Shown here: one piece after another, positions 10,957-24,525 of the stretch | Layout: each line of letters starts with the position of its first letter | Numbering within the stretch: position 1 is the first letter of the stretch | DNA from: Dictyostelium discoideum | Taxonomy: Eukaryota | Assembly (NCBI GenBank): GCA_000004695.1 | Contig: CM000150.2 | Coordinates: forward strand, 3,520,001 to 3,584,000 | Reading direction: 5' to 3' | Length of the DNA: 64,000 bases | Made by a program: the position numbers and the translations under genes | The notes under the pieces: generated by a model | What the model was told of the DNA's origin: nothing | Databases searched by the model: none | Seen by the model: the letters and a program-made list of their open reading frames with translations, nothing else

Positions 10957-11772
10957 ATAACAGGTTGCGCTTTTATTACATTCTCAACTAAAGAAGAAGC
11001 TGATAATGCATTAAATACCACAAACGAAAGTGGAACTTTCCTCGAAAATGTAAGTTTATACTTTTTTTTTTTTTTTTTTTTTTTTAATTTTTTTTTTAAA
11101 AAACTAAATTAAATTTATACTTATAAAAAATGTTTATTATTATCTTTTATTTATTTATTTTTTAGATGAATAAACCATTACAAGTTAAATATTCAGATAA
11201 TGAAATTGAAAAGATGGAAAGAAAATTATTCATTGGTATGTTAGGTACCTCCGATGAAGATCAAATTCGTATTTTGTTTGGAAACTATGGTATTATTGAA
11301 GATTTGAACATTGTTAGAGAAAAGGATGGTAAACCAAAGGGTTATGGTTTCATTAAATACTCAACCAGAGATGAATCTGAAAATGCCTTAAGAGAAATCG
11401 ATGGTAAACATACTCTTCCAGGTTCAAATCTTCCAATCATCGTTAAATTCGCCGATACTGAAAGACAAAAGAGAAAGAAGTTACTCGGTAATCAACAACC
11501 ACCACAAAACCCTTTCAATTTCTATCAACAAAATCAACAACAACAACAACAACAGCAACAACAACAACAACAACAAAATCAATACCAACCATTCTTCTAT
11601 GGTCAAAACTCTCAAATGTCACAAGCTATGGGTAATAATGGTTATCGTGGTTATCAACAACAACCAAATGTTAATTTTGGTATGATGCAAGGTAACCAAG
11701 CTTTTGATTGTATGTAATTTAAATATTTTATTTATTTTTATAATATTTTTTATTTTATTTAATTAATTAATG

Positions 11773-13231: not shown

Positions 13232-14467
13232 CAAACTGACAGTTTCCAAAAATAAAATCCTAACTGTAAAATTAGTAATATGAAAAGACGAAAAAAAAGG
13301 GAAGAGAATATATTCGAATGTCTGAGAATGAAAAAAAAATAAAAAAAAATAAAATAAATTAAAAATAAAATAAAATGAAAAAAAACTAACTTCTCTTTAG
13401 TTTAATATATATTGGAAATGTACACACACAATATTTTAAAGAGATTAGTTAAATTAAAAAAAAATATGAAAAACCATAGATTTTACTTTTTTGAAATTTG
13501 ATATGTAACTGCTTGCTTTGCTGTTTCAATTATCTTAATAATCTTTTATGTGCAGGGCATCTGAAAATTAATTTTAAAATAAAATTACTTTTACTAACAA
13601 TCAAAACATATCACAACAGTACTTTTTTTTAAAACGTTTTATTTAAACAATTTATTTTATTTTTATTTTTATTATTTTTATTATTTTTATTATTTTTTTT
13701 TTTTTTTTAAAAAATAAAAAAATAAAACTATAAAATAAAAAAAAAAAAAAAAAATATATTTTATTATTATTTCATTATTTTTATTATCTCTCTCTTTCTC
13801 TCTTTTTTATATTTTTTTTATTTTTATTAATTAATATTAACATTATAAAAACACACTTGTATATATATTATTTGTTTATTTAAAATTAATAATTAAATAA
13901 ATTATTTAAAAAAAAAAAAAAAAAAAAAGCTTTTTTGATTTTTTTTTTTTTTTTTTTTTTTTTCGTTGTGTTTTTTTGTGTTCAGTATCTAATTTTGTAA
14001 TATTTATTATTTTTCCAAAAACCCACACTTTCTACATGTTATAAAATTAGAATATATTGGTTAATCAATTGTAAAATTACTTTTAAAAACAATGGTTTTT
14101 ATTTTTTCATACTTTAATTATTTTTGTGTAAGTTTTTTTTTTTTTTTATATATTTTTTTAATTAAAAAAAAAAAAAATAAAAAAAAAAAATTAAAAGATC
14201 TAAAATAAAAATAATAAAATTAAAAATAAAATAAAAAAATAAAAAAAAATAAAAAATTAAAAATAAAATCTATTTTTAAAAATAAATTCTATTTTTAAAA
14301 ATAAATTCTATTTTTAAAATTAAAAAATAATTTAAAATATTAATCTAATATATATATATATATTTTTTTTTTTTAAAAAATTTTATTATTTTTTTTATTT
14401 TTTAATATAGATTAATTATAGGCTCTTTTTAAAAGAAAGAGATAACAAAAGAAGATATTATTTTAGA

Positions 14468-17400
14468 ATGAAAAATTTAATATTAATATTTTTTATTTTT
14501 TTATTTATTTCAAATGGTAAGTTTTTTTTTATTTTTTTTATTTTTAGAATTAAAAATTAACTATTATTATTCATTTCTTTTATTTTTTTTTTTTTTTTTT
14601 CCAATTTCCAATTTTTTCAATTATTTTTTAATTAACACTTTTTTTTTTTTTTTTTTTTTTTTCTTATTCTTTAAAAATAAAAAGTATATTCATATGTATC
14701 AACATGTAATGGACCTGATTCATATACAGCAAATTTAAAACCATGGAGTTATGGAAGTAGTTGGATTTCAGGTAAAATTCCAGTAACTGGAGATAAAGTA
14801 GAAATTCCATCAGGATATAGTATATTATTAGATGTATCAACACCAAGATTAACCCAAATTTGGATTCAAAGTGGTGGTCAATTAGTTATTAGTTCAAAAC
14901 ATGGACCATTGGAAATTATAACCGATGGTATATTAATTGAAGGTAGAATGGATGTTGGTGATGAAAATTGTAAATTTAATGAATCATTTACAGTTACACT
15001 TACTGGTATTGAAGGACAAGGATATATTGAAAAAAAGAGTGATATGCTCCAAAAGTATATTGGTGTTTTACCAGGTGGTTCATTGGAAGTTCATGGTTAT
15101 CTTAGTTATCCAATTCCAACATGGACTAAATTAAATAAAACAATCACTGGTGGAAGTACAATGATTATTAATGTTGCCGATGACGTTAGTATGTGGCCAG
15201 TTGGCTCAACAATTGTATTGGGTAGTACCGATTTTGATATGTACCAATCTGAAGAGGTTATAACTCTTTCATGTCCAGAATGTTCGGCTTATCAATTGAA
15301 AATCAATGGTTCAAAATATTATCATTTTGGTGCAATCACTTTTGGCGTCGATGAAAGGGCCGAAGTGGGTCTATTAACTAAAAATATTGTAGTACGTGGT
15401 GAAATGCAGCCAACTTGTAACGGTTCAAGAATTTGCGATTATTTCAATTTCGATGGGTTTGGTGGACATATTAAATTTGTTAAAGGCTTTGCAAATGGTC
15501 ATCTCGAGGGTATGGAAGTCTACAATATGGGTCAAACCTATAATGTTGGTTATTATCCAATTCATTTTCATATGTGTGGTGATGTAGATACAGGTTCCTA
15601 TGCAAATTGGCCAAGCTATGTAAAAGATGTTTCAATTCATCATACAAAGTCAAGATGTTTAACAATTCATGGTACAAGTGGTTTGGTTGTAGTGAATAAC
15701 TTTGCCTATGATCATTATGGACATTGTTATTTCTTTGAGGACGGTAGTGAACAAAGAAATTATTTAGATTCAAATGTTGGTTTAGTAACTCGTTATGGTT
15801 ACCTTTTACCATCAGATAGAGATGGAGATGTTTGTATCTTTGCCAATCCAACCGATTACAATGGAAATGCAATTGATATTGGAACATGTCAAGCGGTGGC
15901 CACTTTTTGGATTACAAACCCAAATAATTATTTAAAGAATAACGTTGCTGGTGGTTCTGCAAATACTGGTTTTTGGTTCCTTTTCCCCGAGGCAGTAAGT
16001 GGCATTTCATCTTATATTTCCGCTTATGACAATGTTTATCCACCATATATTCCAATTGGTAGTTTTGTAAATAACAAGGCCCATTCAAATGTTTTGCAAG
16101 GAATGAACATTGATCAATCTCATCAGATTCAACAACAAAGTGCAGATTATCCAAATCCTCATCTTTCAATGACCTATGGTCGTTATAAACCAAGAGTTGA
16201 CCCAACCAATCCATCTTCAGCACGTGCAACCTCTTTGATTTATCAATTTACAGCTTATAAAAATAAATGGAGAGGTTTATGGGCTAGAGGAGGTGATCTT
16301 GTTTTCCATTCATGTATTTTCTCAGAGAATGCAATCGGTGCAACTTTAGCAGCAGAGGGTGTAATGCAAGCAGATATGGGTTCAACTCAACAATGTATTG
16401 GTTGTACTTTTATTTTGGAAACAGAGAATGTTGGTCAAGCAACAAATGGTTTAAATACCTATGGTGGTGTTACACTTCCAGCCTACTATCAATTCAGTCA
16501 AAGAGGTATTGAAATTTATGATGGTCCTGTTATACTTCAATATTGTACCTTTATTGGATTCAATACCGATGGATCAAGAAATACAAGTGCAATTGGTTGG
16601 TTCCTTTATGATGATTGGATTTTCTCTACCACAAATCAATTGATTGGTTCAACTTTTATTAATTCAAATCTACGTGTATTAAATATACCATCCAATTATG
16701 ATGGTGCTAAACAACAAATTTTCCTTGATGCCGATGGTTCAGTCACTGGTACCAAGAATTCCTATGTTGTCCCAAGTGTTCCATACTTTTATTCAAGTAA
16801 AAGTGTTATAAATACCGCATGGAATATGTCAATCTCCACAGAGAAATTTGCATCACTCTATGTCTATAATAAAGATGTCGCAGGTAGTAATATACCAGAT
16901 TCAGCAGGAATTATCATGGTAAGAGATGAATATTCATATTATCGTCATATCCTTCAAGGCGTACCAAATGGATCACCAAGAAATACATTTTTACCAACAG
17001 TTATGCTTGGAAAGAGTTATACAATGCATTTCCCACATGCAACACCACCACATCTTCAAGTTCAATTAACAAATTTCGATCAAAGTGATCAAGTTATCGT
17101 TGGTATTTGTTATCCAACTTGGGGTGTCACTTTTGAAATCACTAAAAATGTTATTATCAACAATTGGAATGCTGTCGTTGAATCAGTGAAAATGGTTGAC
17201 TCATTGGATCAAGTTAAAAATGACACCAAAGGTTTATCAGCATACTATGATTCAGTGACAGGTTTATTATTCTTAAATGCAATTCAAGAAAGAACTCGTC
17301 AATGGAATTATTTTTGTCCAGATGTTGGTTGTGAAACTTTTGATATCCAAATAACTGGTTTGGGTGTAAACACAAATACTGGTTATTGTTCAAGCTCTTA

Positions 17401-17639
17401 TCCAAAATATTCCAAACTATCATTGGCAACAAGAGGTGGTTGTAATGGTGATCCAAATTTAGTATATGATATATGTGGCGTTTGTGGTGGTGATGGTTCA
17501 ACTTGCGGTGCTACCACAAATAAATTGGTAAATGAATTGGGTTTATCAAATTCAAATTCTGCAATTTCAATTAATTTATTACCATTTAATTTTATTTCAA
17601 TAACATTTTTAATTTTTTCAATAATAATAATTTTATTAT

Positions 17640-17641
<2 letters not shown>
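14468..17641 (+). CDS. secreted G8-domain / right-handed beta-helix protein (CEMIP/TMEM2-like) with hydrophobic C-terminal tail (probable GPI signal); 2 exons 14468..14516 and 14685..17641
   Basis: Exon 1 is a signal peptide MKNLILIFFIFLFISN, joined in phase 1 to exon 2. A G8-like segment WSYGSSWISGKIPVTGDKVEIPSGYSILLDVSTPRLTQIWIQSGGQLVISS follows. Many G/N-rich beta-helix-like repeats come next. The C-terminus LLPFNFISITFLIFSIIIILL is hydrophobic. Confidence 0.7.
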
Positions 17642-17959: not shown

Positions 17960-19386
17960 ATGTCACATAAAGATAGACGTGGAAATTCATCAAATGATGG
18001 AAGTTCTTGTAAATTTTCTTTTTTTTTTTTTTTTTATCAATTTAACAAATAAAATAAAAATACTAATTTTTGGAATAAAATAATAATAAAAATAATAATA
18101 ATATTAATAGTTAAGTTAAATGAAACTTTTACATCAAGTGAAGTTGAAGTTAAACCAACATTTGAATCAATGGGATTACGTGAAGAATTATTAAGAGGTA
18201 TTTTTAATTATGGATTTGAAAAACCATCAGCAATTCAACAACGTGCAATTTTACCAATTATTAAAGGTAGGGATACGATCGCACAAGCACAATCAGGTAC
18301 AGGTAAAACAGCAACATTTTCAATTGGAGCATTACAATGTGTAGAAGTGAATGTAAGATCACCTCAAGTTTTAATATTATCACCAACAAGAGAGTTAGCA
18401 CAACAAATTCAAAAGGTAGCATTGGCATTATCAGAGTTTATGAATATTCAAGTCCACGCATGTGTTGGTGGAAAGAATTTAAGTGATGATGTTAAGAAAT
18501 TAGAGACTGGTGTTCACATTGTTAGTGGTACACCAGGTCGTGTATTAGATATGATCACTCGTAAATCACTTCCAACTCGTCATATTAAAATGATGATTTT
18601 AGATGAGGCCGATGAGATGCTTTCATTGGGTTTTCAACAACAAATTAATGATGTATATAGATATTTACCAAATGGTACTCAAATCGTATTAGTATCAGCT
18701 ACTCTAACACAAGATGTAGTTTCAATGACTGAAAAATTTATGACAAAACCAGTTCGTATCCTATTGAAACGTGATGAACTCACTTTGGATGGTATCAAAC
18801 AATTCTTTGTATCTGTAGAGAAAGAAGATTGGAAATTCGGTACACTTTGCGATATCTACGATAGTCTTACAATCACTCAAGCTGTAATTTTTTGTAATAC
18901 TAAAAAGAAAGTAGATCAATTAACTGAACAAATGCGTGATGCTAATTTCACTGTAGCCTCAATGCATGGTGATATGGTACAAAAAGAAAGAGAAGAAATT
19001 ATTAAATCATTTAGATCTGGTGAAAAGTTTGGATTTTTTTTTTTTTTTTTTTTTTTTCTTCTTCAAAAAATCATAATTTCTGTTAATTAATTGATTCATA
19101 TACTAATTATTATTTTATTTTATTATTATTTAGTCGTGTTTTAATTACAACAGATATTTTAGCTAGAGGTATTGATGTTCAACAAGTTTCATTAGTTATA
19201 AATTATGATTTACCAATAGATCGTGAAAATTACATTCACAGAATAGGTAGATCCGGTAGATTTGGTCGTAAGGGTGTTGCAATTAATTTCGTTAAAAACT
19301 CTGACATTAGAATTTTAAGAGATATTGAACAATTTTATTCTACTCAAATTGATGAAATGCCTGTAAATTTTGCTTCAATCATTTAA
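17960..19386 (+). CDS. eIF4A-family DEAD-box helicase, closest to eIF4A-III; 3 exons 17960..18008, 18111..19026, 19134..19386
   Basis: Contains [38 protein letters not shown] and SAT. The C-terminus [42 protein letters not shown] favours the eIF4A3-like form. The second donor is a weak GTTTGG. Confidence 0.7.
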
Positions 19387-19580: not shown

Positions 19581-21510
19581 TTACTTTTTAGCATTCATTA
19601 CTTCAAGTTTTGTTGAATTTTTAGGTTCTAATAAAATTGATTGTTCATAAGTATCATCTTCAAATTTTTTCTTATCACTCATATGAGGTAATTCACAAAG
19701 GAAACCTAATACTGAAGGTTTTGGTTTAATTGTATAACCTTGTTGTTGATATTGTTGGATTTCCAAAATGGTATTAAAGATCATTTCTCTCTTTTTAAAG
19801 TTAATTAAACCTTTGATTTCATCTTGATTTCCATCTTCAATAAAGGTTAAATCGGTTAAATAGATACCCAAGTATGGTATTAATGGTGGACATGTTGAAT
19901 GAATTATATCACGATATACTTTATGAGATTTTTTGGTATCCAGGAATTTACATAGGAAATCGAATTTCTTTTGATACTGTTTTGAGATTAATGATTTGGT
20001 ATGATTTAAACGATAAACTCCACTTGCCATTAAACCACTTAAGCCAGCTAATAGTCCATTGAAATTTGAAAGTTTATAAAGTGCATAACAAATCTTTATC
20101 ATTTTTAACATCATTTTCGATCTTTGTTTAATATCGTTCTCTCTAAGTATTGCCCAAGAAACAAATGAACTAAAACTATTGAATCTATTGACCATCGAAG
20201 CAATATTTGGTGTATTGGTTTTTTGATCAGGTTTTGACCAAGCTTGATTCAATAATTCAATCTCTTCAATGGATTTATAGGAATCGAAATCTAACAAAGT
20301 TAATTGTTCAGCAATATCAGTTGAACTTTGTGAGAAAATAAACTCTGTTGAATATTTCATCCAAAATATCTTTGCCTTTGGTATACCTTGGCCATTATTT
20401 ATTATTGGTAATTGTAATCTATCTTTTTGTTTTTGTTGTTTAAATTTCTTTAATATTAAATCACTATATTGGCCATGTCCATTTCTTCTTGTTGAATTTA
20501 AAAATGCTGTTAACATTTTAAATAATGATGGTTGTTGTATTGTGCTATTTTGTAAATTCGTACTTTGTTGTAATTGAGGTTGAGGTTGTTGTGGTTGAGG
20601 TTGTGGTTGTGGTTGTGTCGTTGAGTTTTGTATTGGCTGAGTTGATTGTGTTGTAATTTGTGGTGGTTGTTGGAAATCACTTGGATATTGTTCTATCCAT
20701 AATCTTAAAACATTTAAAACTCTTAATTGTATTGGAATTTGAATTTTTTGAACAAATTGATATGGTACAATATTCTTTAGATTTGGTGTAAAATAACGTT
20801 GAATTAATTTCATTAAGAATATATCACCTGTTGTAAATGATCTATAAGTTGTGATAAAAGTTTTTGTGAATCTTAATTCGGTATTTGATTCACATGTTAA
20901 CTTTAAAATCAATTGATTCAACGAAGCATATTTAATTGATCTATAGAATTTATCATCAATATTGGTATTGTTTATATAGTAAACGTTTATGTCTTCCTTT
21001 TCTTCTTCTAACCAAATAGAAGTATCAACTTTATCTTTACTAGTTAAATGATTGTAAACCTCCATAAAACTTTCAATTGCATATTGTAATTGATTCTCTT
21101 CGAATGATGATGATCTCGATTGCAATCCACCAACAATACCACCATTACCAACACTCAATGTTGTACCTAATCCACCGCCACCACTTCCACCAATACCATT
21201 TGAAGGCATTATTGGTTGAGGTTGTGAGAAATTACCAGTTGAAAATGATTTACCAATACTTCTATTATTTATCATTACATTATTTGAACTTGAACTTAAT
21301 AAATGGTGATGACTATGATTATATTCACGATTATGATTATGAAATTGGTGTGGTGGTAATAATAGATTTGGTGTTGATGAATTTGGTGAATTTGTTGATG
21401 ATACATTTGCTAAATCACCAATTGTTGTTGAACTTGATAATGTTGATGTTGATGAATTATTATAATTATGACCACTTTTATTTGTTTCATTTTTATTTTC
21501 ATTTTTATTT

Positions 21511-21584
<74 letters not shown>

Positions 21585-21818
21585 GGGATTGTTGGCATTG
21601 TTTGTATTGCTATTTTGACCTTCTTTTCCCATTAATGAATTTAATATATCCATTGTATTTAATTGAAAGGTTGGTGTTGATTCAGCAGAGTTATTATTTT
21701 GATTTACAACACCAAACTTTCCACCAGTAGCATTATAAACTAACATTGATGTAGGCGAGATTGAGGAATAGTGTGGTTTTCTATTTAATTGTTGTTGTTG
21801 TTGAGATTGAGATTGTAT

Positions 21819-21915
<97 letters not shown>

Positions 21916-21938
21916 GATTGAGATTGTATTTGTTGTGG

Positions 21939-21993
<55 letters not shown>

Positions 21994-23220
21994 AAAATTT
22001 GTTGAATATGATGTTGTGAGGCAGCAGATGATGGAGTTTGAGTTGAGGATGAAAATGATAGGGAAGCTGATGAAGAAACAGGTGTTGTATAAGAACTTGT
22101 ACTTGCACTACTTCCACTTGAGGTATTTCTTTTTACATAAGTCATTGGTGAATCGGTAGATAAAGAATGTGATAGAAATAAACCACATTTCGGAGATGAT
22201 ACTGATTCATTATTATTACCACTGTCAACATAATAATTTGAACTTAAATTATTACCAATTAATTTTGTATATTCTTTTGAAAATGTATCCAATTTCGATA
22301 AAACTTTATTTATTGTTAAAACAATATCATCATCTTTTGATGACGAGTATGAAGATGATAGCAAAGAGGAATGAGAAGATTTAATTGTATTTGATGGATT
22401 AGTTGTAGTGTTTGTAGTGGTTGTGGTGGTGGTAGTAGTGGTTGTAGTATTATTATTTGTAAAAATATCCATTTCAATGAAATCCAAATGATCACTAATT
22501 GAAGGGAATAATTGTTGGGTAGAATAAAACAATTGGTTTGAAACTTCACTTAATTCTTTACTTTTCTTTCTTGTATCTGTTAAATCAATTAATTGAACTT
22601 GGTATAAGAAATCATTTGAATTCTTTATTAGAGATATGAATATTTCTTGTGCTATACAATAGGATGTATTATTTTCAAATAGTATTGAAATATCTTTATT
22701 ATTATTATTATTATTATTATTAATATATTCTTCATCAGTTAGATAAGTATCCAATAGCTCATATAAATAATTTTGAATTTTTTTACATTGATCCATAATT
22801 TCCAAATAAACTTCTTGAATTAATTGAATTTTAAATGATGGAGATTTCATCATTTTCAAAGCAGGTTTTTTATATGGTACATTATTGTTATTATTATTTG
22901 TATTGTTATTATTGTTATTATTATATACATTTAGATTATTTCCATAAGTAGTTGTTGTAGTTGTTGTGGTAGTTGTTGAATTGGTATTTGTTGTATTTGT
23001 ACAGTCAGTGTAATTACTCATTGTATCATCACAATCGATATAACATGATGATGATTGAGTTGGACTATTAATTACACTATTATTACCAGTTTTACTGACA
23101 TTAATACTTATATTATTTGAATTATTACTATTATTATTATTATTATTACTACTATTGGATATATTTGAATTATTGTTACTATTATTATTATTATTAGAGT
23201 TAATAATGCTATTATTATTA

Positions 23221-23257
<37 letters not shown>

Positions 23258-24525
23258 TATTATTATTATTATTGTTATTATTACTAAATGTTAAAGTATT
23301 AATATTATTATATGAAGAATTACTTGGTGATGAAATCGATGGAAATGAAGAAAGTGATAAATTTAAATCGTTCGGTGAATTAATTTCCTCACTACTTATA
23401 CTATCATTACTGTCTGTCATATCGATATTCGAACCACTATTTAAAATTAAATTTGGATTATTCCAAAAATGGATTTTCAAAAACTTTTTTAATTGCTGAA
23501 ATAATTCTATCCTTTTTATATTTATATCACCTGTTTATTTTTTAAAATTAAATTATTTTTTTATAAAAAAAATGTTAATAATACTCACATTTATGAAAAT
23601 TAAAAATAGAAAAAAAAAGTGAATATAATAAACATACCATGATAAAATTCAAATTTAATTTCTTTTAATAAAAATTTTACAGATTTTACAACACTATATT
23701 TTATAGATGGATTTATTAAATTTGATTGTTTTAATAAATTTTTACAATCTTTTTCTAATTGAATAATTGATTCTTTAAAATCCTATAAATTTTTAAAAAA
23801 AAAAAAAAAAAAAAAAAAGATAAAAAAAAATTATATATATTAATATTAATATATATATAAATCTATATATATAAATCTATATCTATCTATATGAAAAATT
23901 AAAATAATTAGTTTTTAAAATATAATTTACAATTAAATTTGTTTTATATTTTCTATCAGTTTGTTCAGTTGTATTTGATTTTAAATTTACTAAATTTGAA
24001 AGTTGTTTTTCTATATTTGATATTATTTCTAATGTTGAAATTCCAATAAATTCTTCACATTTAATAAATTGTTTTAAAATTGGAAATTTTCCAAGATAAT
24101 CAATTTCTTCAATTAGAAAAGTTTCATTATCACTCTCTACTATTATAATACCTTTATTCAGATTAAAATATTGTGATCCCATTGAAGAATTTATAATTAT
24201 ACCATTGTTATTAATATTACTACCATTTCCATTATTATTATTATTATCCCTATAATTATCCATCCTTCTACCTATTAAATTCGATATATTATATATTTTC
24301 TGTTGTTTTTCATTTTCTAAAATCTATAATTATTATTATAATTTTTTTTTATAATAAATTAAATTTTAATAAATTATTTTTGTTTTTTTTTTTTTTTATT
24401 TGGAGAGAAAGTCTTTCTCTTACTTTTAAATATAATTTTTTATTTTCTTCTATAAAGTCGAAAGAAATTACTTGATCTAAGGTATTGAATCTATTTTCAT
24501 TCCAACCCCATAAAATTACAACCAT
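19581..24525 (-). CDS. RasGEF (REM + CDC25 catalytic domain) with long polyN/polyQ/polyT tracts; exons complement(24424..24525, 23931..24323, 23638..23782, 19581..23530)
   Basis: The RasGEF N-terminal motif is LILKLTCESNTELRFTKTFITTYRSFTTGDIFLMKLIQRY. The CDC25-domain motifs are DIAEQLTLLDFDSYKSI and LIPYLGIYLTDLTFIEDGN. Three upstream exons were found by donor/acceptor and phase checks and extend the start to ATG at 24525. Confidence 0.75.
21790..21995. repeat. (CAA)n/(TTG)n coding repeat (polyQ) within RasGEF; flanked by (AAT)n polyN at 21485-21585
   Basis: Seen directly. It explains the spurious plus-strand polyV/polyL ORFs in the track. Confidence 0.95.

Follow-up and report, generated by a model that had tools for sequence, protein, structure and literature searches.

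The gene DDB_G0270636 (UniProt Q55D62) lies at positions 14468–17641 of the forward (+) strand in a stretch of 64,000 nucleotides of Dictyostelium discoideum chromosome 1 (contig CM000150.2, positions 3,520,001 to 3,584,000). This whole stretch is called the window here, and, unless stated otherwise, coordinates are those of the window and of its forward strand. Its transcripts were found to be nearly confined to terminal differentiation, namely to spores and cup cells. Judged from its sequence, the encoded protein corresponds, in Amoebozoa, to the core of the animal proteins CEMIP and TMEM2. The explanation that we prefer, with a probability of roughly 0.6, is that the protein sits on the surface of spores and cup cells, held by a glycosylphosphatidylinositol (GPI)-type anchor, and that it binds or cleaves polysaccharide of the spore coat or the sorus. 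Known constituents of this coat are cellulose and a Gal/GalNAc polysaccharide.

Expression at terminal differentiation

In the filter development series of Rosengarten 2015, the raw reads for the gene (two replicates each) were 11 and 2 at 0 h, 89 and 180 at 1 h, and 21 and 32 at 2 h. They stayed between 2 and 18 across 3–20 h, were 15 and 116 at 22 h, and reached 1928 and 767 at 24 h. In the Parikh time course, as tabulated in Kin 2018, the value was 56.9 at 24 h, up from 0.3–2.6 at all times to 20 h. When the transcripts were resolved by cell type (Kin 2018), the replicates in transcripts per million (TPM) were 150, 215 and 62 for spores, 63, 82 and 58 for cup cells, 3.4, 2.4 and 3.9 for stalk cells, and 0.75 and 0.56 for vegetative cells. 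The corresponding values per cell type were 142 TPM (spore), 68 TPM (cup), 3 TPM (stalk) and 0.7 TPM (vegetative). In published RNA-seq, the value was 5.0 for the prespore fraction and 2.9 for the prestalk fraction. A life-cycle proteome of 2026 detected the protein only in the fruiting body.

The induction at 22–24 h and the TPM values of spores and cup cells therefore place the gene in the terminal-differentiation programme. Its near-silence at 3–20 h and in vegetative cells argues against a role in the slime sheath or in axenic growth.

A first-pass annotation of the window, made from the letters of the DNA, had named slime-sheath or cell-wall polysaccharide as possible targets. The cell-wall half of this proposal, read as the wall of the spore or the sorus, fits the expression (induction at 22–24 h; spore 142, cup 68 and stalk 3 TPM). 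The slime-sheath half is contradicted by the 2–18 raw reads per sample at 3–20 h. A wider form of the latter idea has the protein remodelling the slime sheath of migrating slugs, or breaking down the polysaccharide of bacterial prey as the cells feed; besides the first-pass proposal, it can call upon the phage capsule depolymerases among the structural neighbours of the protein. We consider it highly unlikely on the data consulted, which did not include growth on bacteria, as the 2–18 reads at 3–20 h take in the aggregation-to-slug period, the vegetative level is 0.6–0.8 TPM, and the prespore and prestalk values are as low as given above.

Domain organization and fold

Searches against Pfam identified three domains. 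The G8 domain (PF10162, E = 3.7e-29, full model length) covers residues 42–167 (14759–15136). It is followed by the CEMIP-type beta-helix core (PF24606, CEMIP_beta-hel, E = 1.8e-82, full-length match) at residues 274–490 (15455–16105), and by the CEMIP domain X beta-sandwich (PF24605, E = 3.4e-31) at residues 754–925 (16895–17410), which was also aligned to TMEM2. The generic Pfam Beta_helix model did not match the protein. A small Cys-rich module with the pattern C..G.P.L..D.CG[VI]CGG[DN]G..C occupies residues 936–957 (17441–17506) and is present in all of the orthologues of the same clade (clade A). The sole Pfam match to this module was a non-significant one, to ADAMTS_CR_3 (E = 0.37).

A model of the protein was obtained with AlphaFold2 (AF2), with 24 homologues as input; the predicted local distance difference test score (pLDDT) was 87.6 and the predicted template modelling score (pTM) was 0.86. 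In the model, beta rungs follow one another without a break between residues ~34 and ~700. Its fold is a right-handed parallel beta-helix, superimposable on the TMEM2 ectodomain. In TMEM2, G8 is part of one continuous helix (Niu 2023), and in the AF2 model G8 likewise forms the first turns of the beta-helix. Glycine is the commonest residue of the protein, at 9.6%. Thus, the G8 domain, the beta-helix and the glycine-rich character that had been proposed from the sequence were all borne out, the first by its Pfam match, the second by the CEMIP_beta-hel match together with the modelled rungs, and the third by the residue count.

Absence of the GG lectin domains

The point at which the animal proteins carry an insertion of about 165 residues with GG-1, a lectin-like domain of the FAM3/ILEI/POMGNT1 kind, corresponds to residues ~168–175 of the Dictyostelium protein (15137–15160), and nothing is inserted there. 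When the protein was aligned to the chain of the human TMEM2 ectodomain (8C6I), residue 172 was paired with chain residue 167 and residue 177 with chain residue 335. In the multiple alignment, no counterpart was seen for residues 250–415 of mouse-type TMEM2, for its N-terminal cytoplasmic and transmembrane region, or for its C-terminal GG-2. A search of the protein with PF15711 (ILEI/GG) at E values up to 1 gave no match, while a Lingula homologue, taken as a positive control, was matched. The alignment to TMEM2 stopped at about residue 931, the last 70 residues being the Cys-rich knot, a linker and a hydrophobic tail.

Among the substitutions in human TMEM2 that are reported to abolish its degradation of hyaluronan, R265C, D273N and D286N map to GG-1 (Niu 2023). 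Two further GG-1 residues of mouse TMEM2, His248 and Ala303, have been reported as indispensable for the same activity. Four of these five residues (Ala303, R265, D273 and D286) sit in the missing insertion, and His248 aligns, at the boundary of the insertion, to an unrelated Thr171. Because GG-1 is absent together with its hyaluronan-degradation residues, the hyaluronidase function would not be carried over. On the alignments, it is only the core of the protein that makes it a family member, and the hyaluronidase label is not transferable as a function. The resemblance to CEMIP and TMEM2 on which the first-pass annotation had remarked thus stands for the G8, beta-helix and domain X core, but not for GG-1, GG-2 or the label. 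To our knowledge, hyaluronan is not known from Dictyostelium.

One could still suppose that the protein is a genuine hyaluronidase in the manner of mouse TMEM2 or CEMIP, given that 900 residues align to TMEM2 with 36% identity and that many homologues are named hyaluronidase in databases. With the GG-1 sites gone, and with the same GG-less core being widespread in soil and hot-spring bacteria, we regard this as extremely improbable.

Conserved residues and a candidate active site

Sixty positions were found to be at least 90% conserved within each of three groups, namely dictyostelids, animals and bacteria. The residues conserved in all groups include H278, H310, H312, H345, H363, E368, D369, E372, D394, W425, W549 and R551. 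The conserved motifs are RAEVG, GGH, E..MGQ, YP[IV]H[FW]H, SRC.T.HGT, GHC[YF]F.EDG.E..N and P[ST]D, as well as STFWI.NP.N, N.AHSN, YKN...G.W.RG, RG.E.YDGP and D.DGS.TG. Conservation is highest in the rungs formed by residues 276–375 (15461–15760), where the Dictyostelium protein carries GGH, E..MGQ, YPIHFH, SRC.T.HGT and GHCYF.EDG.E.RN. The equivalents of H278, H310, H312, H345, H363, E368, D369 and E372 in TMEM2 are H519, H550, H552, H585, H603, E608, D609 and E612, respectively.

According to the strand list of the model, H278, H310/H312, T343/H345, F366/E368, W425, W447 and W549/R551 are located on or beside the first strand of consecutive rungs. This register suggests that one sheet of the modelled helix is lined by a ladder of Trp residues and a cluster of His, Glu and Asp.

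Two long loops of TMEM2 cover the centre of the concave face of its helix (Niu 2023), and both are kept nearly residue for residue in the Dictyostelium protein. Loop 1 comprises residues 387–421 (15794–15898; TMEM2 627–662) and contains the PSDR motif, the pair Cys400/Cys418 and the universally conserved Asp394; loop 2 comprises residues 494–516 (16115–16183; TMEM2 733–756). Two loop elaborations are common to dictyostelids and animals and are deleted in bacteria. These are the Cys400–Cys418 part of loop 1 and the DVDTGSY segment at residues 317–327 (15584–15616).

That the polar residues have been kept all the way from bacteria to mammals speaks for a site of catalysis or metal binding, one that would work independently of GG-1. 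The recurrence of the same His/Glu/Asp/Trp set in bacteria, amoebae and animals suggests a conserved glycan-processing site. That the function is catalytic and not purely one of binding is, in our estimate, an even bet.

The beta-helix may on the other hand be non-catalytic, no more than a scaffold for glycan binding, adhesion or signalling at the surface of spores and cup cells, and some groups argue likewise for human TMEM2. We hold this to be a possible but distinctly less probable account. Polar residues kept at 90% or more in bacteria, dictyostelids and animals alike are seen more typically where a protein catalyses a reaction or binds a metal than on a binding surface, and the top structural neighbours of the protein are mostly glycan-cleaving enzymes.

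Gene model, signal peptide and C-terminal tail

Splicing of two exons, 14468–14516 and 14685–17641, gave a coding sequence of 3006 nucleotides, in frame, which encodes 1001 amino acids. The predicted protein was 100% identical to D. discoideum AX4 XP_646269.1 (EAL72668.1; Q55D62; chromosome 1, 4.92 Mb). Its database name is 'transmembrane protein', and the gene identifier DDB_G0270636 was taken from a proteomics supplement. Exon 1 is 49 nucleotides long, starts with the ATG at 14468 and encodes MKNLILIFFIFLFISN plus one base, that is, the bulk of the signal peptide. The intron (14517–14684) has 168 nucleotides, is in phase 1, reads GTAAGT...AAAG at its ends and has a GC content of only 9.5%. 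Exon 2 is a single long exon with 33.7% GC and ends with the TAA at 17639–17641. The window as a whole, being AT-rich Dictyostelium DNA, has 23.6% GC.

The GenBank/UniProt model is longer, at 1032 amino acids. Upstream of the ATG at 14468 it adds a database-only extension (14093–14467) that consists of a 36-nucleotide exon (14093–14128), a 282-nucleotide intron (14129–14410) and a stretch of 57 nucleotides. This model begins with MVFIFSYFNYFCINYRLFLKERDNKRRYYFR ahead of MKNL, so that the signal peptide is buried behind 31 residues. In the orthologues of D. purpureum, D. firmibasis, T. lacteum, P. violaceum and C. fasciculata, the first residue is the Met just ahead of the hydrophobic stretch. 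Since orthologues begin at the Met of the signal peptide, 14468 is the better start, and the 5′ extension is probably a non-coding annotation artefact; it may possibly contain an intron of the 5′ untranslated region.

The signal peptide comprises residues 1–19 and ends at 14692, in exon 2. By the –3/–1 rule, applied by reading the sequence, cleavage is predicted after VYS(19), which would leave a mature N-terminus YVSTCNGPD.... The hydrophobic core of the signal peptide is kept in the orthologues. The coordinates of the gene and the peptide quoted for it in the first-pass annotation (WSYGSSWISGK..., found at residues 37–86) proved correct, and splicing and translation confirmed its signal-peptide exon. 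It had, however, taken this peptide for the mature N-terminus; this is instead where the G8 match starts, and the mature end lies 17 residues upstream.

A Kyte–Doolittle scan of the protein (averaged over 19 residues, cut-off of at least 1.6) revealed hydrophobic segments only at residues 1–24 and 975–1001, with no internal transmembrane segment. A flexible linker rich in Ser, Asn, Ala and Gly (residues 958–978; 17507–17569) contains the candidate omega site N974-S-A, and the pLDDT of residues 958–986 was below 50, as for a disordered linker. The uncharged hydrophobic tail (residues 979–1001; 17570–17638) extends to the last residue and resembles a GPI-attachment signal. All ten dictyostelid orthologues examined have 12–19 uncharged hydrophobic residues that run to the very end and follow a stretch rich in Ser, Asn, Ala and Gly. 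The sequence of the tail diverges among them, while its properties are kept. A rule-based omega scan for small residues at omega, omega+1 and omega+2, which in GPI-anchored proteins are expected some 8–12 residues before the tail, picked N974-S-A as a candidate here and further candidates in nine of the ten orthologues.

An omega-like stretch followed by an uncharged tail without a cytoplasmic stub is the pattern of a GPI signal, and we think it likely that the protein is GPI-anchored. The reading of the tail as a C-terminal GPI-type signal, offered in the first-pass annotation, was thus upheld by properties that are conserved in ten orthologues, and the internal transmembrane segment that would have spoken against it was not found by the scan. 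A type I anchor normally leaves a charged cytoplasmic stub.

Alternatively, the product could be an integral membrane protein, either of type I through a C-terminal helix or signal-anchored as the 1032-residue model would have it. A tail of 16–23 residues could span a membrane, the AF2 model has a helix at residues 982–1000, and in the longer model the first hydrophobic stretch is preceded by 31 residues, among them KERDNKRRYYFR. Against the type I form, nothing follows the tail in any of the ten orthologues, a positive-inside cytoplasmic stub is missing, and the small-residue, omega-like stretch lies 5–11 residues upstream of the tail; against the signal-anchored form, the orthologues lack the N-terminal extension. 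An integral membrane protein is therefore unlikely in our view.

Proposed function

The preferred explanation, a glycan-binding or glycan-cleaving protein at the surface of spores and cup cells, may be put as a sequence of steps. The C-terminal signal beyond the flexible Ser/Asn linker would, most likely, be exchanged for a GPI anchor, and the protein would be located on the outer face of the plasma membrane of the spore or cup cell. There it would bind the polysaccharide of the spore coat or of the sorus matrix along one sheet of the helix, through the Trp ladder and the His/Glu/Asp cluster. The bound glycan, which would not be hyaluronan, would then, most likely, be cleaved or remodelled.

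Several observations weigh against this explanation. The protein was detected in a single fruiting-body replicate and at low abundance. The transcript shows a transient and unexplained peak 1 h after starvation (89 and 180 reads), long before the induction at 24 h, and the mRNA of spores could be stored for germination instead of being used in sporulation. The GPI prediction is a rule-based one only. The purified ectodomain of human TMEM2 showed no hyaluronidase activity (Niu 2023), a result with which other groups disagree. Gene neighbourhoods around 79 bacterial loci of the family gave no hint of a substrate, the commonest neighbour family being present at only seven of them, and an NCBIfam search of the bacterial relatives matched no model. 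Lastly, when a profile of the 24 homologues was compared with the PDB, it was not linked to any CAZy-type beta-helix enzyme.

Whether CEMIP and TMEM2 are enzymes at all, and where their active site would be located, is disputed. A literature search for the active site of CEMIP yielded nothing useful, and Narita 2023 reports neither mutants nor an active site. In this context, a wider proposal may be made, although it is a speculative one to which we give a rather low chance. The GG-less, lipid-anchored core may be the ancestral and catalytically competent form of the CEMIP/TMEM2 family, a glycanase of substrates other than hyaluronan, whose conserved residues reveal the active site of the family. 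If so, H550, H552, H585, H603, E608, D609, E612, W666 and W788 of TMEM2 would be the active site of the animal protein, and GG-1 would have been added later in the animal lineage, supplying only the targeting to hyaluronan. A genetically tractable organism without known hyaluronan, and hundreds of bacteria besides, hold the stripped-down helix and thereby offer a simple route to the function of the core, for which the conserved polar residues listed above are direct targets of mutagenesis. For the biology of Dictyostelium, a candidate glycan-processing factor of the spore and cup-cell surface joins the terminal-differentiation programme.

It may be noted that DDB_G0270636 is an ordinary and already catalogued member of the CEMIP/TMEM2 family. 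A search of the literature for the gene, its accessions and the paralogue DDB_G0287365 returned zero mentions, and no discussion of the GG-less, GPI-tailed architecture, of the spore and cup-cell expression or of the wide bacterial kinship was found in the literature searched.

Neighbouring genes and upstream DNA

The upstream neighbour encodes an RRM protein (11166–11717, + strand) and is listed as DDB_G0270634, adjoining DDB_G0270636 in a supplement table. Automated gene models fuse the RRM gene to the G8 gene in D. citrinum (P0121, 1334 amino acids) and in another dictyostelid (P0008, 1165 amino acids); such fused models suggest that the synteny of the two genes has been kept. A 19-bp tandem repeat, TTAAAAATAAAATCTATTT, is present at 14257–14325, about 145–210 bp 5′ of the start codon, in 3.6 copies with 94% matches. 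A role of this repeat in the promoter of the gene, which is expressed late in spores and cup cells, is conceivable.

Downstream, an eIF4A-type DEAD-box helicase is encoded at 18170–19090 (+ strand; DEAD, E = 4e-46, and Helicase_C). Its open reading frame enters a poly-Phe stretch, which points to an intron near 19040, and the first exon likely starts from the ATG at 17961. A large RasGEF gene occupies 19581–23480 on the reverse (–) strand, with RasGEF_N and RasGEF domains and very long homopolymer tracts of Asn, Gln and Thr. A tblastn search of the 64-kb window found no paralogue of the G8 gene.

Comparison with known systems

One group of systems considered was that of the right-handed beta-helix polysaccharide enzymes, comprising GH87 alpha-1,3-glucanase, PL6 alginate lyases, the epimerases AlgE4 and AlgG, and phage capsule depolymerases. 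Most of the high-scoring structural neighbours of the protein are glycan-cleaving enzymes, the phage capsule depolymerases among them, and the identity to this group is 5–14%. The catalytic residues and signatures specific to families of the GH28, GH87, PL1 or PL6 type are lacking in the protein. The PDB profile search returned only TMEM2 and, through its animal rows, the GG domains of FAM3 and POMGNT1. Given the 5–14% identity and the lack of a profile match, the catalytic residues of the beta-helix polysaccharide enzymes cannot, on present alignments, be transferred to the Dictyostelium protein.

Closer relatives were found in bacteria. When prokaryotes were scanned, each species being represented by a single genome, relatives were found to be encoded at more than 423 bacterial loci, with 29–35% identity over a span from residue ~37 to residue 712 or, at most, 900. 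The hosts, from soil and hot springs, include Deinococcota (Meiothermus, Truepera), Acidimicrobiia, Acidobacteriota, Steroidobacteraceae, Chloroflexota and others; example loci are L010 (7980–10526, from Meiothermus rufus DSM 22234), L022, L024, L058, L076 and L078 in our series L001–L079. Acidobacteriota, Gammaproteobacteria and Chloroflexota often hold two or three tandem paralogues. A lipoprotein lipobox was present in 15 of the 90 bacterial relatives inspected for it, and members from Deinococcota carry lipoboxes; through the Cys of the lipobox, many of the bacterial proteins would be held at the cell surface by a lipid. The bacterial relatives share with the Dictyostelium protein the G8 domain and the CEMIP beta-helix without GG, and the same His/Glu/Asp/Trp motifs. 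They differ in giving no Pfam match for domain X and in lacking the Cys400–Cys418 loop and the 317–327 segment.

The GG-less architecture is of the bacterial type, and with so many bacterial loci a recent horizontal acquisition from bacteria has to be considered. It is, however, very unlikely. The identity to animal proteins is higher (36–40%), and domain X and the Cys400–Cys418 loop are common to animals and not to bacteria. In a neighbour-joining tree, a crude one without bootstrap, the eukaryotic sequences group apart from all bacteria and the dictyostelid clades go with animals. The gene also has an intron and a composition typical of Dictyostelium, and there are two paralogous clades across all of the dictyostelid groups. 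The simplest reading of these comparisons is that of an old eukaryotic gene, to which GG lectin domains would have been added later in the animal lineage.

Dictyostelia have at least two conserved clades of the family, the GPI-tailed clade of DDB_G0270636 and the clade of DDB_G0287365. Members of the latter (DDB_G0287365 of D. discoideum and DLAC_07369 of T. lacteum) have the same GG-less combination of G8, beta-helix and domain X and are 37–38% identical to the protein studied here. They differ from it in their length (~1076–1109 amino acids), in an additional C-terminal domain and in the absence of a hydrophobic tail. As the tail is absent, the proteins of this clade are probably secreted and not anchored.

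Among the animal proteins, CEMIP (KIAA1199, HYBID) is 36–39% identical over about 75% of the query. Like the Dictyostelium protein, it is secreted with a signal peptide and has G8, the CEMIP beta-helix and domain X; unlike it, CEMIP carries a pair of GG domains (PF15711), and many members have PF13330 in addition. The depolymerization of hyaluronan by CEMIP requires living cells and the GG-1 residues His169 and Ala225, features of which none is present in the Dictyostelium protein. The ectodomain of human TMEM2 (CEMIP2; 8C6I) is the only solved relative by sequence, with E = 1.7e-161 and 36% identity over 900 residues. TMEM2 has an N-terminal cytoplasmic tail, a type II transmembrane segment, the GG-1 insertion, GG-2 and a final helix, all of which the Dictyostelium protein lacks; in their place are a signal peptide that is cleaved off at the N-terminus and, at the C-terminus, the Cys-rich knot and the GPI-type tail.

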